From: Candidatus Gorgyraea atricola
GTDB taxonomy: Bacteria > Omnitrophota > Gorgyraeia > Gorgyraeales > Gorgyraeaceae
Direction: 5' to 3'
Assembly: GCA_030765235.1 (NCBI GenBank)
Contig: JAVCCW010000030.1
Span: 8,144-72,143 of the forward strand
DNA: 64,000 nt
Shown piece after piece: positions 17,299 through 64,000 of this stretch (the stretch's first letter is position 1; every line of letters starts with the position of its first letter). The notes below the pieces were generated by a model, which had not been told where the DNA came from, ran no database searches, and saw nothing but the letters and a program-made list of their open reading frames with translations. Position numbers and translations under genes: made by a program.

Positions 17299-17997
17299 CT
17301 AAGCCTTCTTTTTTTAACTATCGTAAAAACATCAAAAACCATCGCGCCTGCCATTGCAATAAGCACGATTGAAACACTTACCAGCGCGAATTCTTTGTCT
17401 TTTATAAAATGCACTGCCTGATATAAAAGCGCTCCTATAGAGGTAACAAGCATAAAGACAGCTGGTAAAAAAGTAAACTTAATGCTTTTTCCTCTACACA
17501 AAAGCCAGCTCGATATCACCACAAAGCTAAGCGCTGCCACCAGCTGATTGCTGGCGCCAAATACAGGCCAGATCTTGCCCCATTTACCGCTTAGGGCCAA
17601 AAGACCACTGATAAATATTACCACAAAGGTAGAAAAGAATCTATTCTTTATTTTAAAAAGTTCTTCGGATAAGTACCTGCATATCCTTGTCGCTGTATCT
17701 AATGTCGTAAGGATGAATGCGTTAAGTATCATCACTGCTACAAGGCCACCATCCCCAGAGCGCTACACCTATAATAGGCCCTACGATCGGCCCTGCTCCG
17801 GCAATGCTCGCAAAATGATGACTAAAAAGGATTAACCAATTCCTGGCAGGTACGTAATCCACGCCGTCATAATACTTGTGGGCAGGCGTCACGTTTTTGG
17901 GATTTACTTCAAAGAATCTCTCTATGATCCGGGCATAAAAAAAATACCCGGCTCCGAGGAACACGAGCGAGGCTAGGATTACTGTGAGTGAATTCAT
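17283..17997 (-). pseudogene. cstA: carbon starvation protein CstA remnant: two out-of-frame fragments (17722-17997 N-terminal, 17283-17735 internal)
   Basis: Fragment 1 carries CstA N-terminal blocks (DYVPARNWLILFSHHFASIAGAGPIVGPIIG). Fragment 2 carries AFILTTLDTATR. Together ~240 aa versus ~600-700 aa for intact CstA, with a frame change at 17722-17735. Confidence 0.5.
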
Positions 17998-19245
17998 CTA
18001 TCGGATAAAGAATTCCATCAATTCGTAACCGCGGTCAATGCGGAATTTGGTCGAACGGGCCTCTTTCTCGTTAAAATACAGGATATCATCCTGCTCTATG
18101 TCAGTACCATACATCGCAAAACACACGTGATCGCGCGAATGTGTCCTGAGAGAGATGGGTGTCGCGTGATCAGAGGTAACAAGTATCCTGAATTCCTCTT
18201 TCGAAGACTTAAAATGCTCCAGCACTGTCCCGACGACAAATTTGTCAAACTTCTCAATGCTCGTGATCTTCTCTTTTAGATCCCCGTTATGACCAGCCTC
18301 GTCAGGCGCCTCCACATGCACAAATACAAAATCCCTATCCTTAAGAGAATCGATCGCATACTGCGCCTTGCCCAAATAATTCGTATCATAATAACCAGTT
18401 GCGCCAGGCACATCGATCACCTTTAGCCCAATGATCTTACCTATACCTTTAATAAGATCCACTGCTGAAATGATAGCGCCTTCTATCTTGTACTTCTCTG
18501 AAAACTTCGGCATGAATGGCCTTGTGCCTTGTCCCCATAGCCAGGTCGCATTCGCAGGATTTTCTTTCAGATCCAACCGCACCCTATTTACCTCGTGACT
18601 CAGCAGCACATCCCTGGAATCATCCATGAGCCTCTTTAAAAATTCAGCATAGTCACCTTTTTTCGGAAGACGAGGATCTATCTTTTTGCCGATAATGTCA
18701 TGCGGCGGCGCGCACTTCACCTTCATAAGCCCCTTTAGCTCATCTTTATTGTTGCACCTCAATATAAGCAAATGTCTATAGCTCATGCCCGCATAAAATC
18801 TTATATCTTTGGTACTCATCTTGGCATTCAGTTCATCAATAAGATGCCTGGCCTCTTCGCTCGATATATGGCCTGCGCTATAATCCGCCATCCGCCCGTT
18901 AGAAATAGTCACGAGATTGCACCTGAATGCTATCTCGTCGTCCTTCATATCTATGTCCATATTCGCTGCCTCGAGCGGTCCGCGGCCTGTATAATACTTG
19001 CGCGGACTATATCCTAATATAGAAAGATTTGCAACATCACTTGCAGGCGCAAAACGGCCAGGTATCATATTCGTAAGTCCGACCCTGCCCTTCTCTGCAA
19101 TAAAATTCATATTAGGGGTCTTGGCTGCCTCAAGAGGCGTCTTGCCTCCAAGTTCCTCCAGCGGCCTATCTCCCATACCATCGCCGACTAAAACAATATA
19201 TTTCATCTGCGCGCCCTTCTCTTTTTTATCTTCCCTTTTTTCCAC
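17998..19245 (-). CDS. ApgM-type cofactor-independent phosphoglycerate mutase family protein (possible non-orthologous homoserine kinase)
   Basis: MKYIVLVGDGMGDRPL...KTPLEAAKTPNMN metalloenzyme N-terminus, 415 aa, archaeal-type iPGM family. Confidence 0.75.
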   Translation of the reverse strand: MEKREDKKEKGAQMKYIVLVGDGMGDRPLEELGGKTPLEAAKTPNMNFIAEKGRVGLTNMIPGRFAPASDVANLSILGYSPRKYYTGRGPLEAANMDIDMKDDEIAFRCNLVTISNGRMADYSAGHISSEEARHLIDELNAKMSTKDIRFYAGMSYRHLLILRCNNKDELKGLMKVKCAPPHDIIGKKIDPRLPKKGDYAEFLKRLMDDSRDVLLSHEVNRVRLDLKENPANATWLWGQGTRPFMPKFSEKYKIEGAIISAVDLIKGIGKIIGLKVIDVPGATGYYDTNYLGKAQYAIDSLKDRDFVFVHVEAPDEAGHNGDLKEKITSIEKFDKFVVGTVLEHFKSSKEEFRILVTSDHATPISLRTHSRDHVCFAMYGTDIEQDDILYFNEKEARSTKFRIDRGYELMEFFIR

Positions 19246-21383
19246 GCCCTGAAAAATGCCTCTACTACAGCAGGGTCAAACTGTGTGCCCACGTTATCCT
19301 TGAGCTCTTTCAATGCCTGCTTCCCTGGCAATGCCTTTCTGTAAGGCCTGTCAGATACCATGGCATGATATGCATCCACAACAGCTATAATGCGAGACTC
19401 GATAGGGATCTCCTCGGCCTTTAGCCCGTCAGGGTAACCACTGCCATCATATTTTTCCTGATGGTGTTTGATTATAACAGCTACCTTTCTTAATCTAGCA
19501 ACAGGCTCCACGATCCTGGCGCCTACATCACAGTGCTGCTTCATTATGCCCCACTCCTCAGAACTGAGTTTCTTCTTTTTATTCAATATCGCGTCAGGCA
19601 CGCCTATCTTGCCTATATCGTGCAAGAGAAGCGCGACCTTTAATTCCTCCATATCAATGCTTGATTTCTGTAATTCAGGGAGCTCATTCGCAACTATCAT
19701 CCCATATTTTGTGACCTCATCCAAATGCCCGCGCGTATAAGAATCCTTCTCATCCACGGTCTTGGCCAGCGCCAACACTGTCTCGAAATGGTTCTTTTTT
19801 TCTTTCTCCCTGAGATTTTCCAGTTTGAGAAAATTCTTCGCATTCTCTATGGCAATAGCGACTTCGTTTGAAAGAGTGGAAAGCAGGCTGATCTCTTCAC
19901 TTGTATAAGGATCTCCCGAGAACTTCTCACCCAGGATCAAAAAACCTGTCAGATCCTTATTCCAGAAACTCGGCATACAAACCTGGCAACCCAACCCCCT
20001 TAATTCACGCTTTAGCTTCTTTTCTCCAACGCCCACGCTTGTATACAGGAGAGGCTTTACCTCTCTCTTTAACCACATAGGTACTGGATGATCACTCCCT
20101 AAAACACACCCTTCCAGGTCCTGGTTATCGCCTCGACGAAATCTTAAAACAAAGTCGCGCGTTTTCTCGTCATATAAAAAAATACAGACACTGCTCGAAC
20201 GCATGTATTTTTTTACAATTCGCGCTATTAGATTTATTAATTTCTGAAGATCAGTTATGAGCACCATGCCGCTACTTGCCTGTACCAGCATGCGCTCATA
20301 TGAAAACCTCTTCTGGAATAAAAATCTGTCTGTCAGCCTTACCAGGAGCCATTCCAGCGGCCTTATTGAAAACACTATGATGAGGACTGCTACGAGTTGA
20401 ATATGACGCGCCCAGTCAAATCTACTATAAAGGGCCTGCTGTATATGAAACACCGCGGATATAAAGCCAAAAAATACAAGCGTAAAGATAAACCAGAAAA
20501 TAAGCTTACGGCCGATCAAATGCCGTTTTTTAACAGTGACCTTTTTTTCGAGCCTCTCTGGCTCGACATACAGATTGTGCATTATGGCTGTGGCGCGCAC
20601 TATCCTGCCGAGCTTATCCATCTCCTCTGGCGCTAATTCAAGAGTAGCTGGATCAAACAATCCTCCTATAAAAGATGTCCCCTCTGTTTTATGTTTATCT
20701 TCAGCGCCTGGCGGCATACCATAAAGTATTACATCCTTTGGTGGTTCTGGCAGTCTTGTAAATCTCTCAGCCAGGTCATACAGCCTGAACATCCCTATAT
20801 CACTTAAAACAATGTTAGGCTTAAACGTCTTTATCTTCTTTAAGACCTCTTCTTTTGTAAAAGCGACGTCCAGCTGATACATGCCCTTGCAGCGCTCCTT
20901 ATCCTGGAAATACGCAAGTTTTGGACTGTACATTATCTTGTTCGGTTCTATAAAAAGAAGCCTTGCCTTGGTCAAGATATTAGAATCCTCAGTTAATTCT
21001 GAAAAACGCCCTCCATCGTATTTCTTTCGAGAAAGGGTCGTTTCTACAATGCTCGCGAGTGTCGCGACTGAAAAGGGTTTGTTTAAAACAGCGTCGCACC
21101 CTATTTTTTCTATCTCTTCCTTATAGTCATCCAAAAAACCTGAAAGCATAACAGTCTTGACGTCAGGATGCGCCTCCCTTACCACCTTCAGGACCTCCAG
21201 GCCGTCTACATCCGGTATTTGAATGTCTAAGAGGATCAAGTCAAACCTGCGTTCATTCAAATATTTTATTGCCTCCTGACCTGAAAAGACAACGCTGACC
21301 TCATAACCCTTTGAAACAAAGAGGTCCTTCAGTGTCAGGGCAATGACCTTTTCATCATCGACTATCAAGATGCGCTTGCTCAT
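19203..21383 (-). CDS. response regulator: receiver domain, membrane segment, GAF-like region, HD-GYP phosphodiesterase
   Basis: N-terminal REC (ILIVDDE...DLILLDIQIPDVDG), central hydrophobic stretch, C-terminal HD-GYP (HDIGKIGVP...HHQEKYDGSGYPDGL). Confidence 0.75.
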   Translation of the reverse strand: MSKRILIVDDEKVIALTLKDLFVSKGYEVSVVFSGQEAIKYLNERRFDLILLDIQIPDVDGLEVLKVVREAHPDVKTVMLSGFLDDYKEEIEKIGCDAVLNKPFSVATLASIVETTLSRKKYDGGRFSELTEDSNILTKARLLFIEPNKIMYSPKLAYFQDKERCKGMYQLDVAFTKEEVLKKIKTFKPNIVLSDIGMFRLYDLAERFTRLPEPPKDVILYGMPPGAEDKHKTEGTSFIGGLFDPATLELAPEEMDKLGRIVRATAIMHNLYVEPERLEKKVTVKKRHLIGRKLIFWFIFTLVFFGFISAVFHIQQALYSRFDWARHIQLVAVLIIVFSIRPLEWLLVRLTDRFLFQKRFSYERMLVQASSGMVLITDLQKLINLIARIVKKYMRSSSVCIFLYDEKTRDFVLRFRRGDNQDLEGCVLGSDHPVPMWLKREVKPLLYTSVGVGEKKLKRELRGLGCQVCMPSFWNKDLTGFLILGEKFSGDPYTSEEISLLSTLSNEVAIAIENAKNFLKLENLREKEKKNHFETVLALAKTVDEKDSYTRGHLDEVTKYGMIVANELPELQKSSIDMEELKVALLLHDIGKIGVPDAILNKKKKLSSEEWGIMKQHCDVGARIVEPVARLRKVAVIIKHHQEKYDGSGYPDGLKAEEIPIESRIIAVVDAYHAMVSDRPYRKALPGKQALKELKDNVGTQFDPAVVEAFFRAWKKGKIKKRRARR

Positions 21384-21619
21384 CCCTTGGTCAATTCCTT
21401 TCTTAAGGACTTTACTATCTCACCTATCTTCAAAGCATACTCCTCAAAATCATTTAAAAGCTGCACGAGTTTCTTCTTCTCGTCTTCTAATTTTTCTGGA
21501 TCAAGGCCTTTTGTCTCTAACTCATGCCTTGTCAGACCTGAGACTATCGTGATCTTGTTGAGCCAGTTATTCAGACTATGAAACTCTTTTCTCAGCGGAC
21601 TAAGCACTGTATCCTCCAT
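21380..21619 (-). CDS. small hypothetical protein inside the phosphorelay operon
   Basis: 79-aa ORF exactly filling the gap between the two receiver genes; no recognisable motif. Confidence 0.35.
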   Translation of the reverse strand: MEDTVLSPLRKEFHSLNNWLNKITIVSGLTRHELETKGLDPEKLEDEKKKLVQLLNDFEEYALKIGEIVKSLRKELTKG

Positions 21620-21988
21620 TTACTTTCCCTCCAGTAGTTTTTCTATGGTTTCTGTTAGACTCTTCAATGATGTGGGCTTGCTTAAAAAGGCATCTGCCCC
21701 AAGCGAGAGACAATTATCCTTTGCGTCATCCTCTTCTCCAAAGCCAGTAAACATGATCACCTTTATATCAGGCTTCAGCATCTTTGCTACCCTTAAGATC
21801 TGCGTGCCTGTCGGCCCTTCTTTTAAATGCAGATCCAGAACCATAAGATGCGGGTTATTTTTCTTCAATAGCTCGAGCCCTGAATCCCCATCTGTAGACG
21901 TGAACACCTGATACCCCTTCACTGTTAAAAAATCTGCTATATTCTTTAACAAGGCCTCTTCATCATCTACTATAAGTATCTTGTGCAC
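21620..21988 (-). CDS. single-domain response regulator (CheY-like receiver)
   Basis: ILIVDDEEAL...HLMVLDLHL...FTGFG receiver signature, 122 aa. Confidence 0.8.
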   Translation of the reverse strand: MHKILIVDDEEALLKNIADFLTVKGYQVFTSTDGDSGLELLKKNNPHLMVLDLHLKEGPTGTQILRVAKMLKPDIKVIMFTGFGEEDDAKDNCLSLGADAFLSKPTSLKSLTETIEKLLEGK

Positions 21989-52200: not shown

Positions 52201-52391
52201 ACATCATAATTAGTCCTATAGAATTCACCTAAAGCTGTTAAGTTAAAACGGTCTTTTCCTTCTTCTGTCTGGAGTTGCGACTGGAGTCTTAGTATATCAG
52301 ATGAGGCATACAAGGTGTGGCTGGATAGAAACGTTGCGAGGAGTATGAAACTAATTAACCTGATTGTCAGACCTTTTTTAAATTTAAGCAT
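49203..52391 (-). CDS. large secreted protein (1062 aa) with C-terminal FlgD-Ig/T9SS-like beta-sandwich sorting-type domain
   Basis: N-terminal signal peptide. C-terminal NRPNPFTNRTTIPYSI...LEIRIYNIEGKEV...GKYRLKWNGLNNQG resembles Por-secretion-tail/FlgD-Ig domains; central region unassigned. Confidence 0.5.
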   Translation of the reverse strand: MLKFKKGLTIRLISFILLATFLSSHTLYASSDILRLQSQLQTEEGKDRFNLTALGEFYRTNYDVQGIAINEETALASIENSKETKIPILLANKSTVHITKAQAIKGIKSKKFVLGFKGEDILLLYTDPLEFHKASGETDEIIVQGVTLPSAVLSGQKIVFKLDDIEKILYKLNKGIDDLDTSAVIQMGDPEGEYSDSDLIKLLKKDNFRSLQALIAIYYFRGGQFTMTAGMPGIDRKTFLKITGLFTAAIALNPASTLTASAPQEPMTAEQKINLAKENIGKLTAIFNKARYYMIPIDLSNLTCGRERKSMTNPARERVKKKITSDLKNGFRELRRVKKLFGDKDTLKSVLSDIGETGYDAVLLTFWGLKKDLDMDALEGALDEVNQEQAGIAEYLVPRVKQIREQVQEIDELHKPPVVQGYAERIINWIENVRAKLYIGIMGWPDAPDEAQRLIKTLNVPGENESIYDQAVDDHMLQILIHGILGYDQALAGMALAKHGKDESDQDFIERTKRIADVYWSGRTGGLSNIRGNWGGPNDYANPFNYYENDPTVIGKDNNNKRTRGWPFKFISERYIITYKGRDITWSQWQPIAGEAAWIGIMCLQSLVLEHGADFKNQIDWKNDVRAQLAEEILRASLILQKDKENQGADLKPVPMAPRGTYHWLGMDHFNNTASLENNQSMLNFYEQYHELIGGYDETLHDGKEIKLSQGIQWIDEFLSWSHDSSKHEFCRGASFDIGSQTWTKDEVFATDVQLWASLSKGPKWIDDNLGGPGETFKIIENAMYKAGILDADGNLTGVDYSDTRNNRSAEWSIFMILACRDAATYYRKNPNVDPANADAWRTELMRWAGELYDGIVTSPDTRLVVERDNMLAVLYAELGLVYTKHGWIVPPEGVEHTAAGSWLNLVEKGLNPFKPGGGESIDTSVKDHRRLAEIDPTEQPISLEQNRPNPFTNRTTIPYSIDESIESLEIRIYNIEGKEVRSFNNLSKGVGKYRLKWNGLNNQGQKTKRGLYIIDYIIKDKNGDMIRIRNKPENKMMRSFIIGVPFIPEILKRAKGFIHNI

Positions 52392-52534: not shown

Positions 52535-53737
52535 TTAATGTGCGAGGATCTCTGTCATCTTGAATACTGGCAGGAACATGGCTATTACTATGCCGCCTAT
52601 CACTACACCTAGAACGGCTATTATAAGCGGCTCTATGAGGCTGGTCAATCCACTCACAGCAGCATCCACCTGGTCATCGTAAAAATCCGCGATCTTCCCG
52701 AGCATCTTTTCGAGTTCGCCTGTCTGCTCGCCTACATTTATCATCCTCACCACCATAGGAGGAAAAACGCCGCTTTTCGCGAGCGGATCAGCTATATTCT
52801 GTCCCTCTTTTATACTCTTGCGAACATCTTCAAGCGCTTTTTCTATTACCGCATTCCCTGAGGTCTTCGCTACTATCTCGAGTGAAACCAGTATCGGCAC
52901 CCCGCTCTTCACAAGTGTCGCGAGCGTTCTTGTAAACTTCGCAACTGCCACCTTTCTCAAGAGTGTACCCAGGATCGGTAGTTTCAAAGTAATACTGTCA
53001 AACACCATTTTGCCCTGTGAAGTCTTAAAATATCTCGCCAGCGCAAAACCAACCACGCCAAGAACAGCGACGACATACAAGAACATACTGCGCAATGTAT
53101 CGCTGACAAGGATCAAGATCCTTGTCGGGAGAGGCAGCGTGCCTCCCAGCGTCGCAAATATGCCCTTGAATGTGGGAATGACCTTTAGGAGCATGACAAG
53201 CGTTATAAGCATTGCCATAGTGACCACCACTGCGGGATAGATCAGGCTGGACTGCACCTTTCTCTGTAAGGCGCTTGCCTTTTCTAAATAACTGGCGAGC
53301 CGATCCAGAATATCATCCAACGCGCCGCTTGATTCACCGGCCTTGACCATATTTATATAAAGGGGTGAAAAAACAGCTGAGTGTTTCAAAAGCGAGTCTG
53401 AAAAACTAGCCCCTGCCTCTATGTCATCCCTGATAGTCGCCACGATGTTTTTAAAGTGCGGCTTTTCTATCTGGTCATATAAAATATCCATGGCCTGTAC
53501 AAGCGGTATTCCGCTATCTACCATTGTGGCCAGCTGCCGGGAAAATATGACGATCTCCTCGAGCTTTACGCCTCTGGAGCTAAAAGGAGCTGTTCTCTTT
53601 TTGGTCTCATTTATAGAGACTATGGTAAGGCCTTTTCTGCGGAGCGCGTCCATTAACACAGCCTTGTCAGAATATTCTAAGGTACCGCTTACTGTCTTGC
53701 CTGTATTTTCTTTTGCAACATATCTAAACGTCGGCAT
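52535..53737 (-). CDS. pilC: type IV pilus inner-membrane platform protein
   Basis: Two T2SS-F domains, 400 aa, 3 TM segments. Confidence 0.85.
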   Translation of the reverse strand: MPTFRYVAKENTGKTVSGTLEYSDKAVLMDALRRKGLTIVSINETKKRTAPFSSRGVKLEEIVIFSRQLATMVDSGIPLVQAMDILYDQIEKPHFKNIVATIRDDIEAGASFSDSLLKHSAVFSPLYINMVKAGESSGALDDILDRLASYLEKASALQRKVQSSLIYPAVVVTMAMLITLVMLLKVIPTFKGIFATLGGTLPLPTRILILVSDTLRSMFLYVVAVLGVVGFALARYFKTSQGKMVFDSITLKLPILGTLLRKVAVAKFTRTLATLVKSGVPILVSLEIVAKTSGNAVIEKALEDVRKSIKEGQNIADPLAKSGVFPPMVVRMINVGEQTGELEKMLGKIADFYDDQVDAAVSGLTSLIEPLIIAVLGVVIGGIVIAMFLPVFKMTEILAH

Positions 53738-53739
53738 GT

Positions 53740-55371
53740 TTAATCCTCCGATGTAACTCTCGAAACCTCTTCCATGGTAGTGACCCCGTCTTTATATTTC
53801 TCCATCGCATCATCTCTAAGCGTCTTCATTCCTTTAGAAATAGCGTATTCCCTTATATCATCTGTCGAGGCCTTTCCTATGATCATTTCCCGCATCTTAT
53901 CATCTACGCTCAAGACTTCCAGTATAGCACACCTTCCGTAATAGCCAGTGCCTGAACACTTTTTGCAAGTTTCTTTTTTTCCTTTACAGTCTGGGCAAAT
54001 TACCCTGCATAATCTCTGCGCTGCCACCAATATCACTGACGAGGCGATCAAAAAAGGCTCGACACCCATATCCATAAGTCGGTTAACAGCTGTTGGCGCG
54101 TCATTGGTGTGGAGTGTACTCAAGACAAGCTGGCCTGTCAACGACGCCTTTATTGCTATATCAGCAGTTTCAGAATCGCGTATCTCTCCGATCATTATCA
54201 CATCAGGGCTCTGTCTTAAAAGAGACCGTAGCCCACTCGCAAAATTAAGGCCTATATCTGAATTCGCCTGCATCTGAGTTATACCCTCGACCTGATATTC
54301 CACAGGGTCTTCTATTGTTATAATATTTTTGTCCGGCGTATTTAACTGACTTATTACGGAATAGAGTGTGGTGGATTTACCGCTGCCTGTCGGACCAGTT
54401 ACCAGTATCATGCCAAAGGGTTTAGCGACTGCCTTTTCGAATCTCGTCAGGGCATATTTTGAAAAACCTAATTTATTAAGTCCTATAGAAAGACTGGATT
54501 TATCAAGCGCCCTCAATACTATCTTGCTTCCAAATGATGTAGGCAAGGCCGAGACCCTGAAATCTACTTCTTTGTTCCGTGTACGTATCTTAAACCTGCC
54601 GTCCTGAGGCGTGCGCGATTCTGTTATATCCATACCTGACATGATCTTAAGCCTTGCCAGGATCGCATTTTGATTTTTCTTGGGGATCTTAAGTACGTCA
54701 TGAAGATTGCCGTCGATCCTGTATCTGACCCGCAGATCATCTTCTTCTGGCTCAACATGAATATCTGACGCCCTTTTCTTTAATGCCTCCACAAGGATCA
54801 GATCCACCATCTTTACGATCGGAGGCGCCTCTCCCTCAAGGGCCGCATCAGTTATATCAAACTCTTCTTTTATAGCGCCTATTACTTCGACATCACCATC
54901 TTCGGCGTCTTTAATAATATCCGATAGCGTCCTTCCCTCTGAGGCGTAAAACTTATCTATTGCCTGGAATATCTCTGTCTCTGTGCTCAAGACTGGTTCT
55001 ACATTGCACTTTGTGATCATCTTTAAATCGTCTATTGCAAATATATTCAGCGGATCGACCATGGCCACAACAAGTGTTGTGGAAAATTTACATATGGCAA
55101 TTGCCCTGTATTGCCTTGCCACCTTTTCAGGTATAAGGGGAACAGACTCCTTTTCTACTTTATATTTCGAGAGATTTATGGCGGGGATACTAAAAGTGCT
55201 GCTCATGACAACCAGCAAGTCCTTTTCGCTTACCAATCCTTCCTTAAGAAGTATCTCAGGCAAACTCCCGCCTTCCCTTGCCTGCTTTTCCCTAACGCGC
55301 TTAAGGTCTTTCTCTGAGATAAGCTTGTTTTTAATCAGGACCTGACTTAATTTATAGTGTGTGGTTGCCAT
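53740..55371 (-). CDS. pilB: type IV pilus assembly ATPase PilB/GspE family (copy 1)
   Basis: T2SSE_N domain, Walker A GPTGSGKSTT, Asp/His boxes, tetracysteine CPDC...CKKC. Confidence 0.85.
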   Translation of the reverse strand: MATTHYKLSQVLIKNKLISEKDLKRVREKQAREGGSLPEILLKEGLVSEKDLLVVMSSTFSIPAINLSKYKVEKESVPLIPEKVARQYRAIAICKFSTTLVVAMVDPLNIFAIDDLKMITKCNVEPVLSTETEIFQAIDKFYASEGRTLSDIIKDAEDGDVEVIGAIKEEFDITDAALEGEAPPIVKMVDLILVEALKKRASDIHVEPEEDDLRVRYRIDGNLHDVLKIPKKNQNAILARLKIMSGMDITESRTPQDGRFKIRTRNKEVDFRVSALPTSFGSKIVLRALDKSSLSIGLNKLGFSKYALTRFEKAVAKPFGMILVTGPTGSGKSTTLYSVISQLNTPDKNIITIEDPVEYQVEGITQMQANSDIGLNFASGLRSLLRQSPDVIMIGEIRDSETADIAIKASLTGQLVLSTLHTNDAPTAVNRLMDMGVEPFLIASSVILVAAQRLCRVICPDCKGKKETCKKCSGTGYYGRCAILEVLSVDDKMREMIIGKASTDDIREYAISKGMKTLRDDAMEKYKDGVTTMEEVSRVTSED

Positions 55372-55379
55372 ATTTCGTT

Positions 55380-57095
55380 TTATTCATCCGCTACAGTAAC
55401 TCTTAATATCTCTTCTAAGCTGGTAACGCCTTCGAGCACTTTTATAAGGCCGTCTTCTCTGAGTGTCCGCATGCCTTCTTTTCTTGCCTGGTTTTTCATC
55501 TCACTTTCCCGTACATTTTTCAAAATCATATTTTTTATCGACGGGCTCATGGTCAGGATTTCGCATATGCCCAACCTTCCGCTATATCCTGTGTTAAAAC
55601 AGTGCTCGCATCCCTTTGGCCTGTAAAGAGTCGAGTTCTTTGACTTATCCTTACCAATGCGCAGGTCAGCAATAATCGCATCACTTGGCTTATAAGATTC
55701 TTTGCACTTTGGACATAACTTACGGATCAATCTTTGGGCAACTATAGATATTAAAGAGGCGCTTATAAGAAAAGGCTCTACGCCCATATTTATAAGCCTC
55801 ACTACTGAACCACACGCGGTTGTCGTGTGTAATGTTGAAAAAACAAGATGTCCCGTAAGCGCAGACTTTATAGCGATGTCCACTGTATCAAAATCCCTTA
55901 TCTCTCCTATCATTATCACATCAGGATCCTGCCTCAAGATAGAGCGCAATGAACTTGCGAACGTAAGGCCTACTTCAGTCCTTACCGTGACCTGATTCAC
56001 ACCCTGGATCTGGTACTCAACAGGATCTTCAACTGTTATAAGATTTTTCTCAGAAGAGTGGACATGTTTCAATAATGAATAAAGCGTGGTGGTCTTTCCA
56101 CTGCCTGTAGGCCCGCACACCAGTATCATTCCATGAGGATGGGACGCTGATTTTTTAAACACTGCTACATTATTTTTTTCAAAGCCGAGTTTTTCAATAT
56201 CCAGCATAGCGCTAGACTTATCCAGCACCCTGAGCGCCACCTTTTCGCCTTTAGAGGAAGGTAAGATAGAGACCCTGAAATCCACTTCATTATCCTTTAC
56301 CCTTAATTTGAAACGGCCGTCCTGAGGAAGCCTGCGCTCAGCAATATTCAGTCGAGACATGACCTTTATCCTTGAGACAATAGACTCATGCCTGCTCTTT
56401 GGCAAAGACTCTATTGTCTTAAGCACTCCGTCTACCCTGTATCGTATGCGCAGAGATTTTTCCATTGGCTCTATCAGGATGTCGCTCGATCGCGCCTTTA
56501 TACCATTTTCAAGGATCGTGTTTGTCAATCTCACAACAGGCGCCTCTTCTACTAATTTATAGAGGCGTGCGGAATCAACTTCCTCTTCAGCCTCTGCCCT
56601 GATGATCTCAAGGTCTGCAATTTTCATGTCCTCCATCAGGTCTTCTATTGCTGCATGAGAATATCCGCCATAATGCTCTGCTATTACATCCTGTACTTCT
56701 TTCTGTGACGCGATAATAGTGCCTGTCTCGAATCCTGTAAGCGAACGGATATCATCTATCGCAAATACGTTCAGGGGGTCAGCCGTTGCTATCGTAAGGA
56801 TATTTCCTACTTTAGAGACAGGGACGATCTGATATTTTTTCGCTATATCAGCTGGCACTAGCTTCAATATCTCAGGATCGATTTTAAAACGGGAGAGTGC
56901 TATGGGTGGAATGCCTAAGCCCTGACTTAAGGCTGCCATTAGATCTCTTTCGCTCGCAAATCCAAGATTAACAAGAACATCCTTTAGCAAGCCGCCCTTC
57001 TGCTTCTGGACCTTCAAGGCCTTTTTTAGCTGGGCGTCAGTGATGACCTTGTTTTTTATCAATATCTCAGTAATGCGTTCTTTGAGAGAATACAT
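55380..57095 (-). CDS. pilB: type IV pilus assembly ATPase PilB/GspE family (copy 2)
   Basis: T2SSE_N domain, Walker A GPTGSGKTTT, tetracysteine CPKC...CEHC, 571 aa. Confidence 0.85.
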   Translation of the reverse strand: MYSLKERITEILIKNKVITDAQLKKALKVQKQKGGLLKDVLVNLGFASERDLMAALSQGLGIPPIALSRFKIDPEILKLVPADIAKKYQIVPVSKVGNILTIATADPLNVFAIDDIRSLTGFETGTIIASQKEVQDVIAEHYGGYSHAAIEDLMEDMKIADLEIIRAEAEEEVDSARLYKLVEEAPVVRLTNTILENGIKARSSDILIEPMEKSLRIRYRVDGVLKTIESLPKSRHESIVSRIKVMSRLNIAERRLPQDGRFKLRVKDNEVDFRVSILPSSKGEKVALRVLDKSSAMLDIEKLGFEKNNVAVFKKSASHPHGMILVCGPTGSGKTTTLYSLLKHVHSSEKNLITVEDPVEYQIQGVNQVTVRTEVGLTFASSLRSILRQDPDVIMIGEIRDFDTVDIAIKSALTGHLVFSTLHTTTACGSVVRLINMGVEPFLISASLISIVAQRLIRKLCPKCKESYKPSDAIIADLRIGKDKSKNSTLYRPKGCEHCFNTGYSGRLGICEILTMSPSIKNMILKNVRESEMKNQARKEGMRTLREDGLIKVLEGVTSLEEILRVTVADE

Positions 57096-57097
57096 AG

Positions 57098-57535
57098 CTA
57101 TTTATAATGATTATTTATTGCGTTCTTGATATCCGTCGCTGTGCTTACAAAAATTTGGACGCACAGACCTGAAACAAGCTCTATGTCTTCTATTGCGAGA
57201 CTGTTCAAAGGGTTTGACATCGCTATTGTAAGATTATTGCCGATCTTATCCACGGGAATGAGACAAAACTGCGTAGCCACATTCTTTGGCACGATCTTAA
57301 CGATCTCAGAATCTATATCATAATTATCGAGCGGCAGGTAAGGGAATCCGTATTGCGCGGTCAAGGCCTGCGCAATAGCTTCTTCAGTCGCATATTTCAG
57401 ACCCACAAGGACTTGGCCAATGAGCCCGCCCTTTGTTTTTTGCACCTCAAGCGCATGCTGAAGCTGCTTTTTATTGATAATTCCTCTTTCAATAAGAAGC
57501 TCTCCTAATTTTTTCTTAATGATCTTTTTCGCCAT
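57098..57535 (-). CDS. stand-alone T2SSE_N / MshEN-like domain protein (putative c-di-GMP receptor)
   Basis: 145 aa carrying two tandem 24-residue MshEN-like motifs, KLGELLIERGIINKKQLQHALEVQ and LIGQVLVGLKYATEEAIAQALTAQ. Confidence 0.65.
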   Translation of the reverse strand: MAKKIIKKKLGELLIERGIINKKQLQHALEVQKTKGGLIGQVLVGLKYATEEAIAQALTAQYGFPYLPLDNYDIDSEIVKIVPKNVATQFCLIPVDKIGNNLTIAMSNPLNSLAIEDIELVSGLCVQIFVSTATDIKNAINNHYK

Positions 57536-58636
57536 TTATGTCTTCTCTTTAAACATCCTCTCTAAATCCTGCACCTCAGTGGTCCTGCCCAGCGCGTCTT
57601 CCTTTGTAATCTGTCCTTGTACAAAAAGATCAAAGAGTGACTGGTTCATTGTCTGCATACCTTCTCTCTGAGCAGTCTGCATAGTAGAATAAACCTGATG
57701 CGCTTTTGATTCCCTGATCTGACTCCGCACCGCAGCGCTGTTCACAAGAACCTCTACTGCCAGCACCCTGTCCTTTCCGGATCGGCTTGGTATCAGCTGC
57801 TGCGACAAAACACCCATCATCACAAACGAGAGCTGTGCCCTGACCTGGGGCTGCTGCCTCGCAGGAAAAACATCGATGATACGATTTATTGTCTGTACGC
57901 TATCTGATGTGTGCAGTGTCGCTAAAACCAGATGGCCTGTCTCTGCAATAGTCAATGCTGCCTCTACTGTCTCGAGATCTCTCATTTCCCCTATCAAGAT
58001 GACATCAGGATCTTCTCTCAGAACATGCTTGAGCGCTTTTGCAAAAGTAAGCGTATCGCTGCCGACCTCTCTTTGGTCTATTATTGACTTCTTATTAGTA
58101 TGTACATACTCTATGGGGTCTTCAACCGTAATTATATGACAATCCTTGCGGCTATTGATCCAGTCTACCATCGAGGCCAGCGTCGTTGATTTTCCACTGC
58201 CAGTAGCGCCTGTAACAAGCACAAGCCCTTTGGGCTTTTCGCAGAAGCCCTCCATTACATTTATTGGCAGGCCGCATTCTTCAAAACTCCGTATCTTAAA
58301 AGGCAATGCCCTGATAGCAGCGCCAACGTATCCCCTCTGCCAAAACACATTGACCCTGAATCTGCCAAATTCTTCTTTAGTAAACGCGAAATCCAACTCT
58401 CTGTCTCTTTCAAAGTGCGCCTTCTGCTCATTGGTAAGAATAGAATATATTAAATCCTTTGACGAATTCTCAGTCAATTCCTTCTCGCTAAGCGCCACAA
58501 GGCCCCCATGCACTCTTAGATGCGGGACAGACCCGACTCCCAAATGTAGATCCGATGCATTCTGTTTTACCATCTCCTTCAGTAATTGATTTAGATCTAT
58601 TGCCATGCAATTCTCCTTTCGATATTCACACCACAA
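57536..58636 (-). CDS. pilT: twitching-motility retraction ATPase
   Basis: GLVLVTGATGSGKSTT Walker A, PilT AIRALPF-like and GEMRD motifs; ~356 aa from MAIDLNQLL. Confidence 0.85.
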   Translation of the reverse strand: MWCEYRKENCMAIDLNQLLKEMVKQNASDLHLGVGSVPHLRVHGGLVALSEKELTENSSKDLIYSILTNEQKAHFERDRELDFAFTKEEFGRFRVNVFWQRGYVGAAIRALPFKIRSFEECGLPINVMEGFCEKPKGLVLVTGATGSGKSTTLASMVDWINSRKDCHIITVEDPIEYVHTNKKSIIDQREVGSDTLTFAKALKHVLREDPDVILIGEMRDLETVEAALTIAETGHLVLATLHTSDSVQTINRIIDVFPARQQPQVRAQLSFVMMGVLSQQLIPSRSGKDRVLAVEVLVNSAAVRSQIRESKAHQVYSTMQTAQREGMQTMNQSLFDLFVQGQITKEDALGRTTEVQDLERMFKEKT

Positions 58637-60038
58637 CCCTGTTTTTACCTAATGATTTCGCGCTCTTAATAAGCTCCTCTGCCTTTTTCATAAGCTCATC
58701 TGCGCTTGAACCATCTATGGGATTCTCGCTCACGGCTATACTTACAGTCAGTTTCCCGCTGATCTCCATAAGTTTTGCAAGTCCAGATTCTACTTTTTTC
58801 TTTATCTCCTCTGCAACGTTTGCAACTTGTTTTTTATTTTTCTCAGGAACAATTATTGCAAACCTGTCTGTGGACAGGCGGCCGACTTTATCTACCGCTG
58901 TCACGCTGCTATTGAGCATCTCACCTAAACATTTTAGCAGAGTCTCTGCTTTTGATTCGCCAAAGCGCTCGTTAAAATCTTTAAAATTATCAATATCTAC
59001 GAGCAGATAACCGCATGGCCTCTGGTAAAGACACGCCCTTTTTATTTCTTCGTCAAGCCTTGCATGTATAAAACCTTCGTTGTAAAGTCCTGTTAATTCA
59101 TCCTTTACTGCGAGCTCCTTTGCTTTCTTTACCAGGATATCGTTCTCAACGGCTATTGTAACCTGTTTAACAAATATCCTCAGAAGCTCCTTTTCGTCTT
59201 CTTTGAACAGAAAATCCTCTTTTGCATTGCCTAACACGAGCATGCCGTAAGGCCTTCTGGAAATAACTATTGGAAGGATAGCAATGTTTTTCAAACCAAG
59301 CGAGGCGATAATCTTATTCGCTGCTATACTCCTAGGCTTCGAAGCCTTATCTATAATAAGCATATCTGTAACAAGATCACCTCTCTTAAGCACTAATTCA
59401 CTCACTCTCTTTTTTTCAATATTTGACTGTGAAAATACCCCGGGTTCTCCTGAAACGCTGTCCGGCAGCATAATAAACGAGCAAGAACCGTTCCCGAGCT
59501 CTGATATCTTTTGCGATATAAAATCAAGGATCCTTAGAAGATCCGTTGAAGAAGATATGAGATTGCCTACCTGCAAAAGCCCTGAAAGCGCAAGTACCTT
59601 CTTATTTATCTCCATATTGATCAACTTTGTCTTTTCACCATAGTTCTTCAGCTCTTCTATGTTATCCTTGATCTTCTGCGTCATAATATTTAAAGACATT
59701 GATAGCTCACCGATCTCGTCCTCGCGATCCACCTTGATCACTCTCTCCATGTCTCCTTCTGCGATTCCCCTTGCGTCAACCGCCATCTGGACCACAGGAT
59801 CTATCATCTGCTTTGTCGTATACAGCCCAAGAAGGGATATAATAATAGATATAACCAATATTAGACTTATATTGCCCAGTGAGAGACCAAGAAATAAAGC
59901 AATGTTAGGAAAGATGTAAGTCGTAACAAGCCATACGCATATCAAAAGCGGTATAAGCGACATCAGAGAAAAGGCGATCATCGTCTTGTACTTCAAACCT
60001 TTAGGAACCAGGGACATCTTTTTCAAGAAATTAATCAT
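58626..60038 (-). CDS. membrane protein with HAMP, GAF and a degenerate GGDEF domain
   Basis: Two N-terminal TM segments; HAMP-like IMTQKIKDNIEEL; GGDEF fold (LTGLYNEGF...DIDNFKDFNERFGESKAETLL) but the signature reads GRLSTDRF instead of GGDEF/GGEEF. Confidence 0.65.
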   Translation of the reverse strand: MINFLKKMSLVPKGLKYKTMIAFSLMSLIPLLICVWLVTTYIFPNIALFLGLSLGNISLILVISIIISLLGLYTTKQMIDPVVQMAVDARGIAEGDMERVIKVDREDEIGELSMSLNIMTQKIKDNIEELKNYGEKTKLINMEINKKVLALSGLLQVGNLISSSTDLLRILDFISQKISELGNGSCSFIMLPDSVSGEPGVFSQSNIEKKRVSELVLKRGDLVTDMLIIDKASKPRSIAANKIIASLGLKNIAILPIVISRRPYGMLVLGNAKEDFLFKEDEKELLRIFVKQVTIAVENDILVKKAKELAVKDELTGLYNEGFIHARLDEEIKRACLYQRPCGYLLVDIDNFKDFNERFGESKAETLLKCLGEMLNSSVTAVDKVGRLSTDRFAIIVPEKNKKQVANVAEEIKKKVESGLAKLMEISGKLTVSIAVSENPIDGSSADELMKKAEELIKSAKSLGKNRVVV

Positions 60039-61683: not shown

Positions 61684-61727
61684 AAAAGCCGAGGCTGGAC
61701 CTCGGCTTTTCCGAGGTCCAGCCTCTA
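61684..61727. repeat. paired AGCCGAGGCTGGACCTCGGCT-family hairpins between rodA and the TIGR03960 radical SAM gene
   Basis: AAAAGCCGAGGCTGGACCTCGGCTTTTCCGAGGTCCAGCCTC. Confidence 0.6.
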
Positions 61728-62804
61728 CCTGTGTATTGCTATGCTCTGCAAGAGGCCCAGCGCCATCATTGTGACCAAAAGTGATGAGCCGCCGTAACTC
61801 ACAAGAGGCAAAGGTAGTCCCACAACTGGCATAAATCCCATGGTCATACTCAGATTTACAATTACCTGCACGCCTATCATCGTCAATAGTCCTGCAGCCA
61901 GAAGCCTGCCGCAGGGATCAGTAGTCTTTTCAACTATAGCCATTGCCCGTCTTATTAAAATATAATAAAGGGCGATTAAAACAATGCCCCCGAAAAATCC
62001 CCATTCTTCTCCTGCTACAGAAAATATAAAATCTGTATGCCTTTCTGCCAGAAAATTTAACTGGTTTTGCGTGCCAGCCAGCCAACCCTTTCCAAAAATC
62101 CCCCCTGAACCTATGGCTATCTTCGACTGGATAATCGTATAGCCAGCGCCTAACGGATCCACGCCAGGATCAATGAACACCAGGAGTCTTTCCTTCTGAT
62201 AGTCCTTTAATAAAAACCACGCTAACGGAGATAGTAAAACGCCAGCGCCTATCATAGAAAATAAATATTTAATTGGCGCGCCCCAGACGTACAACAACAT
62301 AAATAATATCGGGACAAAGATAAGCGCAGTCCCTAGATCAGGCTCTTTAAGTATGAGAATAAACGGGGCTATTGTCATGAGTAAAGGTACGAAAATATTC
62401 TTAAGCCTCGCGTAGGCTTTATGAGTCGTGAGATACTGCACGAGCGCCAGCGTTATAAAAAGCTTTCCAAATTCAGAAGGCTGGATATTAAAAGCGCCTA
62501 TTGCAAGCCACCTTTGCGCGCCAAGCCTGCGACTGCCAAATAAAAGCACAGCAAAAAGAAGCGCTATCGTCAGAAAATAAAATATATTTCCTATTCCCAC
62601 GATCTTTCTGTAGTTTACGTTTATCATCCACATAAATATCAAAGACCCCAGCAAAAACCAAACTACCTGCCTCAACACAAAACCCCCATTATAAGGATAT
62701 GTAGCGCTAAATAAAAACAAAAGCCCTAGCGCAAAAATCCCCAGAGCGCTCCCCATCAACACCCAATCAAAACCCTTATACTTTTTCAAGTCTAATTTAA
62801 GCAT
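61725..62804 (-). CDS. rodA: SEDS-family peptidoglycan glycosyltransferase (RodA/FtsW); RodA favoured by adjacency to mrdA
   Basis: 10-TM FtsW/RodA/SpoVE topology; conserved VSYGGSSLL near the C-terminus. Confidence 0.8.
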   Translation of the reverse strand: MLKLDLKKYKGFDWVLMGSALGIFALGLLFLFSATYPYNGGFVLRQVVWFLLGSLIFMWMINVNYRKIVGIGNIFYFLTIALLFAVLLFGSRRLGAQRWLAIGAFNIQPSEFGKLFITLALVQYLTTHKAYARLKNIFVPLLMTIAPFILILKEPDLGTALIFVPILFMLLYVWGAPIKYLFSMIGAGVLLSPLAWFLLKDYQKERLLVFIDPGVDPLGAGYTIIQSKIAIGSGGIFGKGWLAGTQNQLNFLAERHTDFIFSVAGEEWGFFGGIVLIALYYILIRRAMAIVEKTTDPCGRLLAAGLLTMIGVQVIVNLSMTMGFMPVVGLPLPLVSYGGSSLLVTMMALGLLQSIAIHR

Positions 62805-62807
62805 ATT

Positions 62808-62908
62808 CGTTTAGCCCGTTTGCCCGTTTGCCCGTTTGCCCGTTTAGCCCGTTACCCGTTGACCGACGAAACGGGCAAACGGGCTAAACGGGCAACGGGC
62901 TAACGGGT
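62808..62908. repeat. inverted tandem (GCCCGTTT)n ... (AAACGGGC)n array between rodA and mrdA
   Basis: CGTTTAGCCCGTTTGCCCGTTTGCCCGTTTGCCCGTTTAGCCCGTTACCCGTTGACCGACGAAACGGGCAAACGGGCTAAACGGGCAACGGGCTAACGGG. Confidence 0.75.
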
Positions 62909-64000
62909 ATACCAGTATTCTATCGCCTTTCTCGCGATAAGCGCGGCAACATCACCGCCTGATCCGCCGTGTTCCAAAAAAACTACAAAACTAATCTCGG
63001 GTTTTTCATAAGGCGCGAATCCAGCAAACCACGCATGCGTCCTCAGGTCTCCCCCGGCCTGAGAAGTGCCGGTCTTGCCAGCAATAGAAACGTCACTGCT
63101 CCATGCCCGAAACCCTGTGCCGTCCTTATCATCGACAACGCCCCTCATCGCGCTTCTGATCAATTGTAGATTTTTTTCCTGCAGCTTTAACTTTATCTTC
63201 CTGGGCTTTCTCTCCAATATATGCGGTTCAATAAGATAGCCTCCGTTTGCCACAGCTGCTACCATGCGAACTATCTGTAAAGGCGTAACAAGCACATAAC
63301 CCTGACCTATTGAAAGATTCGCAGTGTCACCCGCATACCAGCTTTCTCTTCTCTCTGTCTTCTTCCATGCCCGCGATGGCAAAAAACCCTGCATCTCACC
63401 CAAAAGCTCTATACGCATCTTTTTCCCAAAGCCTAAACTCTTAGCATATTCCAAAATCTTTTCAGCACCTATTGAAAGTCCCACGTTATAAAAATAAATA
63501 TTGCACGACTGCGCAATCGCATCTCTAATATGCATCGCTCCATGACCGTCCCTATTCCAGCAGTGAAAATTGCCTGCACCGACCTTTAATCTTCCCCGGC
63601 AAAGAAAATCCGTCTCTGGCGTTATTTTATCAGACTCCAGGCCCGCAAGCGCAACAACTATTTTAAAAATTGAACCGGGTGGATATTGGCCCATGATAGC
63701 CCTATTTAAAAGAGGCGCATCGCTGTCGTTAAGGACGCTAAGGATCGAACCTCCGGGATCATAAGAAGGTGTGCTGACCATAGCCAGGATCTCCCCGCTC
63801 GAAACATCCATAAAGACTGCTGCGCCTTTTTTTTCTTTCATCGCTCTCCATAAAAAATTCTGCAGTTTCGCGTCTATTGTAAGAGAGATATCATTGCCCT
63901 TCCTTGGCCTTTTAAAATTCAAGATCTTCACCTGTCGGCCGCGATTATCAACCTGCACCTGCATGCCTCCATCCCTGCCACGCAGATGACCATCAATAAC
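62900..64000 (-). CDS. mrdA: penicillin-binding protein 2 (transpeptidase), 5' part beyond window end
   Basis: Transpeptidase motifs SIFKIV (SxxK), SCN, KTGT. Confidence 0.8.
   Translation of the reverse strand, partial: VIDGHLRGRDGGMQVQVDNRGRQVKILNFKRPRKGNDISLTIDAKLQNFLWRAMKEKKGAAVFMDVSSGEILAMVSTPSYDPGGSILSVLNDSDAPLLNRAIMGQYPPGSIFKIVVALAGLESDKITPETDFLCRGRLKVGAGNFHCWNRDGHGAMHIRDAIAQSCNIYFYNVGLSIGAEKILEYAKSLGFGKKMRIELLGEMQGFLPSRAWKKTERRESWYAGDTANLSIGQGYVLVTPLQIVRMVAAVANGGYLIEPHILERKPRKIKLKLQEKNLQLIRSAMRGVVDDKDGTGFRAWSSDVSIAGKTGTSQAGGDLRTHAWFAGFAPYEKPEISFVVFLEHGGSGGDVAALIARKAIEYWYTR

Follow-up and report, generated by a model that had tools for sequence, protein, structure and literature searches.

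Why should a pilus locus encode a free copy of a sensor domain that its assembly motors already carry? The question is raised by a stretch of 64,000 nucleotides (nt) from Candidatus Gorgyraea atricola (phylum Omnitrophota; assembly GCA_030765235.1, contig JAVCCW010000030.1, positions 8,144 to 72,143 of the forward strand), hereafter called the window. Its type IVa pilus locus encodes two assembly ATPases, PilB-1 and PilB-2 (PilB1 and PilB2 when the orthologous families are meant), each with its own Pfam MshEN N-domain (E = 2e-19 and 6.5e-19, respectively), and a separate protein of 145 residues that is an MshEN domain and nothing more. In the known cases of control of type IV pili by cyclic di-GMP (c-di-GMP), the MshEN domain is fused to the motor, as in MshE, PilF and M. 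xanthus PilB, or control is exerted in trans through FimX and PilZ. We propose, with moderate confidence and from sequence comparison, that the 145-residue protein is a detached MshEN domain that serves the type IVa pilus assembly machinery (PilB1/PilB2) as its c-di-GMP receptor subunit.

The identity of the domain is clear. The 145-residue open reading frame (ORF) is matched by Pfam MshEN (PF05157) over residues 62–144 (E = 4e-17) and by NCBIfam NF053729 ("c-di-GMP_motif, MshE-related") over residues 9–61, the latter with 59.2 bits against a cut-off of 38 bits (E = 2.6e-16), a match far beyond chance. In this protein, Pfam finds MshEN alone and no ATPase domain with Walker A/B, Asp and His boxes, and the TIGR02538 profile covers it with model positions 1–136 of 564 only. 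The original prediction had described the ORF as only a T2SSE_N domain with two tandem 24-residue MshEN motifs, and the profile matches and the translations bear this out. The two motifs (Table 1) are separated by the spacer KTKGG and form with it a site of 53 residues. Numbering is identical to that of V. cholerae MshE: R9, L10, G11, G18, L25, L29 and Q32 of MshE correspond to K, L, G, G, L, L and Q in the window protein, and R38, L39, G40, G47, L54, L58 and Q61 to L, I, G, K, I, L and Q.

An AlphaFold2 (AF2) model built with 29 sequences (pLDDT 92) shows helices at residues 10–16, 22–35, 39–45 and 51–62, followed by an alpha/beta part with strands and helices at 76–143. The top Foldseek match of this model is 5HTL, the structure of MshE with c-di-GMP (TM-score 0.82–0.85, root-mean-square deviation 2.2 Å, 139 columns), and the next ones are PilF GSPII-A, GSPII-B, the X. 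citri PilB N-domain and XpsE-N. Among the sequences of the PDB, the protein matches PilF, several PilB N-termini and MshE(1–145) with E-values of 1e-15 to 1e-46. The ORF thus encodes a complete MshEN domain with the two-subdomain fold, a four-helix bundle and a T2SSE_N1-like alpha/beta subdomain.

Is the binding site preserved? At least 246 species genomes encode a relative (one genome per species was scanned), and 80 loci were fetched, including that of the complete Ca. Velamenicoccus archaeovorus genome; counts out of 80 refer to this set. In motif 1, G11, L25 and L29 are found in all 80 orthologs, L10 in 79 and Q32 in 77; in motif 2, G40 and Q61 are invariant, while L38, I54 and L58 or I58 are each found in 79. 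The hydrophobic triads of the window protein, L10/I54/L58 and I39/L25/L29, are retained together with Q32 and Q61 in 77–80 of the 80 sequences, when L, I and V are equated at positions 39 and 58. The glycines persist as well in 34 divergent single-domain representatives of 39–64% identity (G11 in 34/34, G40 in 31/34). In V. cholerae MshE, the substitutions G11L and G40I leave poor or no c-di-GMP binding, mutation of any conserved hydrophobic residue lowers the affinity more than 10-fold, and the loss stays below about 5-fold when Arg9, Asp12 or Gln32 is altered (Wang et al., PMC5013675).

The alignment of the key Arg, Leu and Gln positions to MshE is preserved in part: the Leu triads and Q32/Q61 are kept, but the Arg positions are replaced by K9 and L38 in the window protein and by Q9 (67/80) and L38 (79/80) in the family. 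The published relaxed MshEN motif admits R, K, P or N at position 1, and the extended consensus reads (R/K/L)LGxx(L/V/I)(L/V/I)xxG(L/V/I)(L/V/I)xxxxLxxxLxxQ (PMC11731258). Since K9/L38 is the configuration of PilF GSPII-B, the window protein fits this extended consensus, which does not cover the Gln9 of the family. GSPII-B, with K and L at the MshE-Arg positions, binds c-di-GMP with a KD of 6 nM (Neissner et al., PMC11731258); its affinity drops 4- to 25-fold when Arg is put back, and the authors propose that a hydrophobic residue replacing Arg predicts very high affinity (PMC11731258).

The N-domains of the PilB proteins constitute an internal control. The original prediction was right that both PilB copies have N-domains of their own; these are, however, degenerate at the two glycines. 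G11 occurs in none of 79 PilB1 sequences, which have T, I, Q or V instead, and in none of 58 PilB2 sequences; G40 occurs in 0/79 PilB1 (S, K or R instead) and 12/58 PilB2. Position 61 is Gly in 67 of the 79 PilB1 and Gln in 17 of the 58 PilB2 sequences. In the window, the changes are G11T, G40K and Q61G in PilB-1 and G11S, G40P and Q61T in PilB-2, and PilB-2 scores 35.5 bits with NF053729, under the cut-off. PilF GSPII-A, with substitutions comparable to those of the PilB N-domains, does not bind c-di-GMP (PMC11731258). Because the PilB N-domains are degenerate at these binding-critical glycines, the free MshEN is not a redundant extra layer of control; judging from these residues, it alone among the MshEN folds of the locus looks capable of binding c-di-GMP.

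The gene itself is real and strongly conserved. The 145-residue protein matches, with 100% identity, an NCBI hypothetical protein from a Ca. Gorgyraea atricola metagenome-assembled genome and has more than 100 homologs of 60–95% identity, almost all of 145 residues. It is a separate gene in 80/80 loci, with stop codons at most 41 codons upstream and at most 5 codons downstream. In the more distant loci, i.e., those without pilT (see below), it is the best-conserved protein: the median identity to the window is 66% for MshEN, 58% for PilB1 and PilC, 56% for PilB2, 46% for RodA, 45% for the radical SAM protein and 40% for the GGDEF-like protein. The segment 59–69 (TAQYGFPYLPL), which joins the end of motif 2 to the start of the C-subdomain, is kept in 78–80 of the 80 sequences at each position. 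A search of 1.84 billion cluster representatives returned many more single-domain proteins of 145–165 residues with 39–64% identity, and all such clusters that carry a name are from Omnitrophota.

What surrounds this gene? In 61 of 62 informative loci, a gene for a GGDEF-family protein, of 470 residues in the window, lies upstream of it. Pfam places HAMP at residues 76–124, GAF at 165–298 and GGDEF at 311–467, and Kyte-Doolittle hydropathy shows two hydrophobic helices within about residues 17–79 with almost no loop between them, in agreement with the transmembrane (TM)-HAMP-GAF-GGDEF architecture predicted at the outset. In an alignment with PleD, the active-site GGEEF corresponds to STDRF and the I-site RAID to TAVD; furthermore, H340 and D344 are replaced by Glu and R446 by Lys. 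A canonical GG[DE]EF is found in 0/69 orthologs. The pilT-less loci have mostly GDDEF or GDNEF, and the clade of the window, with xxD[KR]F, has decayed further, the fourth motif residue (canonical Glu) being Lys, Arg or Ser. GDDEF was considered as a known active variant and rejected: in the c-di-GMP papers checked, it is a misspelling of GGDEF. The protein is almost certainly a catalytically dead pseudoenzyme, as had been supposed from STDRF.

The earlier suggestion that the pseudoenzyme acts as a receptor or a scaffold can be narrowed. At the Arg position of the RxxD inhibitory site (I-site), which lies five residues upstream of the GGDEF motif, 60 of 70 sequences have T or S and only 2 have R, and the guanine-binding Asn335 (PleD numbering) is kept in the window only, the orthologs having H, Y, S, R or Q, while Asp344 is Glu. 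Being without RxxD, the protein is ruled out as an I-site c-di-GMP receptor, and a canonical receptor role is unsupported because essentially no ortholog has RxxD and the guanine-binding Asn varies. A role as scaffold, or as membrane-anchored transducer or docking partner, is more likely, given the near-constant position upstream of the MshEN gene.

The position of pilT is less constant. In 26 of the 62 informative loci, belonging to the clade of the window only, pilT lies between the GGDEF-like and MshEN genes; in 35 it is missing there, and the two genes are 11–188 nt apart. The adjacency of pilT is therefore clade-specific and ruled out as a conserved feature. A REC-HD-GYP gene is found between pilB2 and pilC in 25 of 31 pilT-less loci (e.g., at 11223–12395 of the Ca. 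Velamenicoccus archaeovorus locus, L070) as compared to 0 of 22 pilT-containing loci, so that pilT next to MshEN and a REC-HD-GYP gene in the locus are mutually exclusive. Its HD and GYP motifs are intact, with HHE..(D/N/G)GxGYP in 26/26 readable copies and LHDxGK in 26 of 27 hits, the 27th being cut at a contig end. Since pilT and HD-GYP differ between the two locus variants, the conserved core consists of the pseudo-GGDEF, MshEN, pilB1 and pilB2 genes, and the association with an HD-GYP phosphodiesterase lends independent support to a c-di-GMP function. Because so many loci have no pilT at that position, synteny does not support the idea that the free MshEN arbitrates between extension and retraction; what stands of the trans-acting c-di-GMP control originally predicted is control of PilB, which is its best reading.

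The window also encodes a REC...HD-GYP protein of 726 residues, unlinked to the pilus locus. It has intact LLLHDIGK and HHQEKYDGSGYP motifs, a long central region with no Pfam match, and 46% identity to the locus-embedded HD-GYP proteins of other Omnitrophota; it is likely a c-di-GMP phosphodiesterase, in which case genes for c-di-GMP turnover exist in this genome. Adjoining it are a single-domain response regulator (21620–21988, minus strand) and a 7TM-GAF histidine kinase (21988–24198, minus strand), and the genes at 19203–24198 likely form a two-component module for c-di-GMP degradation, which lies 36 kb away from the pilus locus. The segment 22001–26000, which takes in the histidine kinase gene, a gene for a B12/radical SAM protein and the beginning of a reductase gene, has a G+C content of 0.33–0.38 compared to about 0.44 elsewhere and may be foreign or fast-evolving. 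Neither an EAL nor a PilZ domain was found in the pilus locus or in the scanned ORFs of the window, and no c-di-GMP riboswitch was detected in the window at Rfam gathering thresholds. For the Omnitrophota, both GGDEF domains and small PilZ genes are on record (bioRxiv 10.1101/2023.11.21.568195).

In the mechanism that we favor, the N-terminal four-helix bundle of the free MshEN would bind one c-di-GMP, contacted by the two Leu triads, by the backbone amides at G11 and G40 and by Q32/Q61, with K9/L38 (Q9/L38 in the family) supplying a configuration linked to nanomolar affinity in PilF GSPII-B. The protein would signal in trans to PilB-1 and PilB-2, either through its T2SSE_N1-like C-subdomain, the probable protein-docking part, or by pairing with the N-domains of the two ATPases, which are its structural equivalents but ligand-blind. 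It would represent a non-covalent extra N-domain, to be compared with the (MshEN)2-3-ATPase fusions found in Clostridia and Thermus. The 2TM-HAMP-GAF-GGDEF-like pseudoenzyme would neither make c-di-GMP nor bind it at an I-site and would probably serve as the membrane-anchored signal transducer or docking partner. In most pilT-less relatives, how much c-di-GMP is available locally would be set by the REC-HD-GYP phosphodiesterase of the locus. Judging from the analogous MshE, PilF and M. xanthus PilB, high c-di-GMP probably promotes pilus assembly. A bolder version, which we consider rather unlikely, is that a mobile c-di-GMP-loaded N-domain acting in trans and the pseudo-diguanylate cyclase choose the platform motor, namely PilB-1, PilB-2 or, in some clades, PilT.

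Several observations weigh against the receptor proposal. Gln9, as the family consensus, lies outside both the relaxed motif [RKPN] and the extended R/K/L. K47 of the window protein is a minority state, the turn Gly being present at this position in 68/80 orthologs, and at position 108 the free MshEN has Asn in place of the Asp that touches guanine in MshE and PilF. PilB1 scores 52.7 bits with NF053729, over the cut-off, and keeps R9, the Leu residues and Q32, so that residual ligand binding by PilB1 is possible. No intact diguanylate cyclase is present among the scanned ORFs of the window. Finally, neither an MshEN-PilB1 nor a GGDEF-like-MshEN fusion occurs in the 80 loci, and the identity of the partner is consequently read from gene order only.

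How do other explanations fare? The free MshEN could be the fission product of an ancestral (MshEN)2-ATPase and a permanent c-di-GMP-sensing structural subunit of the PilB-1 hexamer, as opposed to a partner-switching diffusible regulator, an alternative that differs from the receptor reading in stoichiometry and dynamics only and that we entertain tentatively. The protein shares 40% identity with the PilB-1 N-domain over residues 4–142, i.e., over its whole length, and its gene is directly upstream of pilB1 in 79/80 loci; the spacers, which shrink to 2 nt in the closest cases, nevertheless reach 100–300 nt in many species, and no fused version is found in 80 loci. Multi-MshEN ATPases do exist (PilF, Cthe_1107 and the (MshEN)4-PilB of Ca. 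Magnetoovum), and of the tandem domains of PilF, only some bind the ligand. However, the small MshEN protein evolves slower than PilB1, and the MshEN-PilZ and MshEN_N-MshEN proteins of the phylum, which are without an ATPase, argue for an autonomous receptor module.

Alternatively, the protein might be a ligand-independent adaptor or decoy, whose T2SSE_N1-like subdomain would occupy the site on the PilM/PilC platform where the ATPase N-domains dock and tune the access of PilB1, PilB2 and PilT, the motif serving fold stability only. We consider this improbable. If the motif were kept for the fold, the PilB1 and PilB2 N-domains, which share this fold, should conserve G11, G40 and Q61, and they do not; the invariance of these residues is thus not due to the fold alone. 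In addition, the three residues persist in relatives of 39–64% identity and in duplicated N-modules, and the locus is associated with an intact HD-GYP phosphodiesterase. The adaptor can draw on the homology of the C-subdomain to GspE N1, which binds GspL (2BH1 and 4PHT are among the Foldseek matches), on the strong conservation of its positions 62–69, 83, 86, 96, 109, 114 and 127–132 in the 80 orthologs, and on the family Gln at position 9, outside the published consensus.

Still more doubtful is a receptor for another cyclic dinucleotide, such as 3′3′-cGAMP. In the V. cholerae study, VcMshEN is reported to bind cGAMP as well (PMC5013675), and both Arg positions of the family are replaced, position 108 is Asn, and no active diguanylate cyclase is seen in the ORFs scanned. 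Against this, all residues that contact guanine via its Hoogsteen edge or through the Leu triads are kept, PilF GSPII-B, which binds c-di-GMP at 6 nM, shares K/L at the Arg positions with the window protein, and the partner enzyme in the locus is of the HD-GYP, c-di-GMP phosphodiesterase type. Lastly, that the ORF is a non-functional truncated pilB duplicate, a frameshift or an assembly artefact deserves next to no credence and, although MshEN-only truncated pilB fragments occur (e.g., in the Paenibacillus thiaminolyticus reference strain), this reading is refuted by conservation and ORF boundaries, the length of the ORF being unchanged across 80 independent species assemblies, with a complete genome among them, the protein being the most conserved of the locus, and the downstream PilB1 being full length with an N-domain of its own.

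The relatives outside the standard locus include further architectures. Three proteins of 212–221 residues from Omnitrophota metagenomes (P0101, P0103, P0123) are MshEN_N-MshEN proteins with a duplicated N-module and no ATPase, and they keep the xLG...Q / LIG...Q signature in both modules. Other relatives of 41–49% identity are fused to PilZ (P0159, P0256, P0207, P0226, P0247, P0268, P0174), either as MshEN-PilZ or as unknown N-region-MshEN-PilZ, and the clusters that name an organism are from Omnitrophota. The combination of two c-di-GMP receptor folds does not appear in the architecture table of Wang 2016; it recalls the X. citri PilB(N)-PilZ complex. In a protein of 454 residues (P0160), annotated as DnaA at its source, MshEN is fused to a Bac_DnaA ATPase domain, which could either connect c-di-GMP to replication initiation or be a fusion made by gene calling. 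Part of the loci (L003–L007, L011, L016, L036, L045, L046, L050, L059, L063, L068, L071, L073–L075 and L078) are labelled as uncultured Planctomycetia/Planctomycetales or Candidatus Eisenbacteria; they have an Omnitrophota-type locus with 59–86% MshEN identity, and the labels are probably wrong.

The features of the window discussed here are collected in Table 1. All genes between 44 and 64 kb are on the minus strand. The GGDEF-family gene ends with a TGA at 58628–58626, followed by 19 nt containing AGGAG and by the ATG of pilT at 58606, where the alignments of PilT orthologs start as well. The overlap of these two genes in the original prediction is an artefact of ORF calling, which arises because the upstream TTG at 58636 is taken as the pilT start. 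The TAA stop of pilT is followed directly, with a 0-nt spacer, by the ATG of the 145-residue gene, whose TAG stop is separated by 2 nt from the ATG of pilB-1.

Table 1. Features of the pilus locus and of the distant HD-GYP gene, in window coordinates.
Feature	Coordinates	Strand	Basis
PBP2	62900-63964	-	
RodA	61725-62804	-	
B12/radical-SAM protein, family TIGR03960	60093-61676	-	
Membrane-anchored pseudo-diguanylate cyclase, 470 aa (2 TM, HAMP, GAF, degenerate GGDEF)	58626..60038	-	Pfam, hydropathy, PleD alignment
STDRF, degenerate counterpart of GG[DE]EF	58860..58874	-	translation, PleD alignment
pilT retraction ATPase, ATG start 58606	57536..58606	-	TIGR01420, 482 bits
Stand-alone MshEN protein, 145 aa	57098..57535	-	Pfam, NCBIfam
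c-di-GMP-binding motif 1 (predicted), residues 9-32, KLGELLIERGIINKKQLQHALEVQ	57440..57511	-	translation
c-di-GMP-binding motif 2 (predicted), residues 38-61, LIGQVLVGLKYATEEAIAQALTAQ	57353..57424	-	translation
MshEN_C / T2SSE_N1-like alpha/beta subdomain, residues 62-145	57101..57352	-	Pfam, AF2 model
PilB-1 assembly ATPase	55380..57095	-	TIGR02538, 647 bits
PilB-2, second assembly ATPase paralog	53740..55371	-	TIGR02538, 628 bits
PilC platform protein, last gene of the conserved block	52535..53737	-	Pfam T2SSF 2.8e-68, synteny
1062-aa protein with FlgD_ig/T9SS-like C-terminus, after PilC	49203-52391	-	
REC...HD-GYP protein, 726 aa, unlinked to the pilus locus	19203..21383	-	Pfam HD_5 1.9e-39 and Response_reg

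The tandem of PilB-1 and PilB-2 (53740–57095) consists of two full-length paralogs, both with Walker A/B motifs and CxxC...CxxC clusters in their translations, and is kept across the Omnitrophota loci. The TIGR03960 B12-binding radical SAM gene, which follows rodA, is directly upstream of the GGDEF-like gene in most loci. A strong terminator-like hairpin (61691–61725) lies between rodA and this gene and sets rodA apart, so that the radical SAM gene may be the first gene of the transcription unit that holds the pilus regulators. On the other side of the conserved block, pilC is separated from the pilin genes by the gene of the 1062-residue protein, whose sole domain is C-terminal and FlgD_ig/T9SS-sorting-like; it has no tblastn match in the related loci, most of which stop near pilC. 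Beyond it follow two pilins, PilM, a 192-residue ORF in the usual PilN slot, PilO and the secretin. Elsewhere in the window, a 150-residue ORF (17283–17735, minus strand) matches only the C-terminal part of the carbon starvation protein CstA (profile positions 440–558 of 560) and is probably a truncated gene or a remnant.

What would such a locus add to the known modes of pilus control? The MshEN family (Wang 2016), ATPase-less MshEN proteins and the FimX-PilZ-PilB control in trans are already known. We found no description of a free MshEN gene in the literature on stand-alone MshEN and on Omnitrophota PilB, type IV pili, c-di-GMP or diguanylate cyclases, and no published account of a phylum-wide free MshEN in a pilB operon, paired with ligand-blind PilB N-domains and a pseudo-GGDEF partner; the retrieved passages of a 2024 review of PilB cofactors (PMC11656802) name no free MshEN protein. 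The locus suggests a third arrangement, in which the motor has a sensor fold that no longer reads the ligand and the site is kept by a detached MshEN, whose gene is under the strongest purifying selection in the operon; a pseudo-diguanylate cyclase and, in most pilT-less relatives, an HD-GYP phosphodiesterase go with it. If this is true, the protein would define a new class of PilB cofactor and offer a natural system for the communication between MshEN/N1 and the ATPase ring, described as poorly understood in passages of the same review (PMC11656802). It would also provide a handle on pilus regulation in the Omnitrophota, largely uncultivated nanobacteria that are believed to attack other cells and are putative predators or parasites, and the K/L and Q/L motif variants would test the rule that non-Arg residues predict very high affinity. 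Were the motor-choosing mobile N-domain to prove correct, this would be the first secretion-ATPase family in which the second-messenger sensor has moved, phylum-wide, to a separate polypeptide.

Compared with V. cholerae MshE (5HTL) and T. thermophilus PilF GSPII-B (8PDK), the free MshEN has the same two-subdomain fold, with two 24-residue motifs and a 5-residue spacer, and K9/L38 of the window protein are identical in kind to K167/L196 of GSPII-B. The MshE and PilF domains are, however, covalently joined to a T2SSE ATPase, whereas the Omnitrophota domain is a separate protein; unlike them, the Omnitrophota family has Gln at motif position 1 and Asn in place of the guanine-contacting Asp108. 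P. aeruginosa PA3740 (MshEN followed by a diverged T2SSE_N1) and the cyanobacterial cce_1044 ((MshEN_N)2) are likewise ATPase-less MshEN proteins. PA3740, a protein of beta- and gamma-proteobacteria, has a highly diverged C-subdomain and cce_1044 has none; by contrast, the free MshEN of Omnitrophota has a canonical C-subdomain, 40% identical to that of the neighboring PilB1. The source of these two proteins describes neither in a pilB operon beside ligand-blind PilB N-domains and a pseudo-GGDEF gene.

The architecture of the GGDEF-family protein resembles that of PelD, which combines a membrane anchor, a GAF domain and an inactive GGDEF domain (TM-GAF-GGDEF*). PelD, PopA, CdgA and SgmT bind c-di-GMP at an RxxD I-site, whereas the Omnitrophota protein has Thr or Ser in place of the Arg in nearly all orthologs. 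The FimX-PilZ-PilB modules of X. citri and P. aeruginosa (FimX-PilB in the latter) also combine a PilB whose MshEN-fold N-domain is degenerate and non-binding with a separate, docking c-di-GMP reader, and they include a degenerate GGDEF domain, as the Omnitrophota locus does. The X. citri PilB(N)-PilZ complex (7LKM/7LKO) is a precedent for control in trans via a degenerate PilB N-domain (PMC8389850). The resemblance is functional only: in the FimX-PilZ-PilB case the receptor is a degenerate EAL domain (that of FimX) bridged by PilZ, whereas the Omnitrophota locus is without EAL and PilZ and its candidate receptor is an MshEN. Finally, the (MshEN)n-T2SSE ATPases, such as PilF, Cthe_1107 and the PilB of Ca. 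Magnetobacterium/Magnetoovum, carry several MshEN folds per motor, only some of which are ligand-competent; in the Omnitrophota, the copy predicted to be ligand-competent is encoded as a gene of its own.

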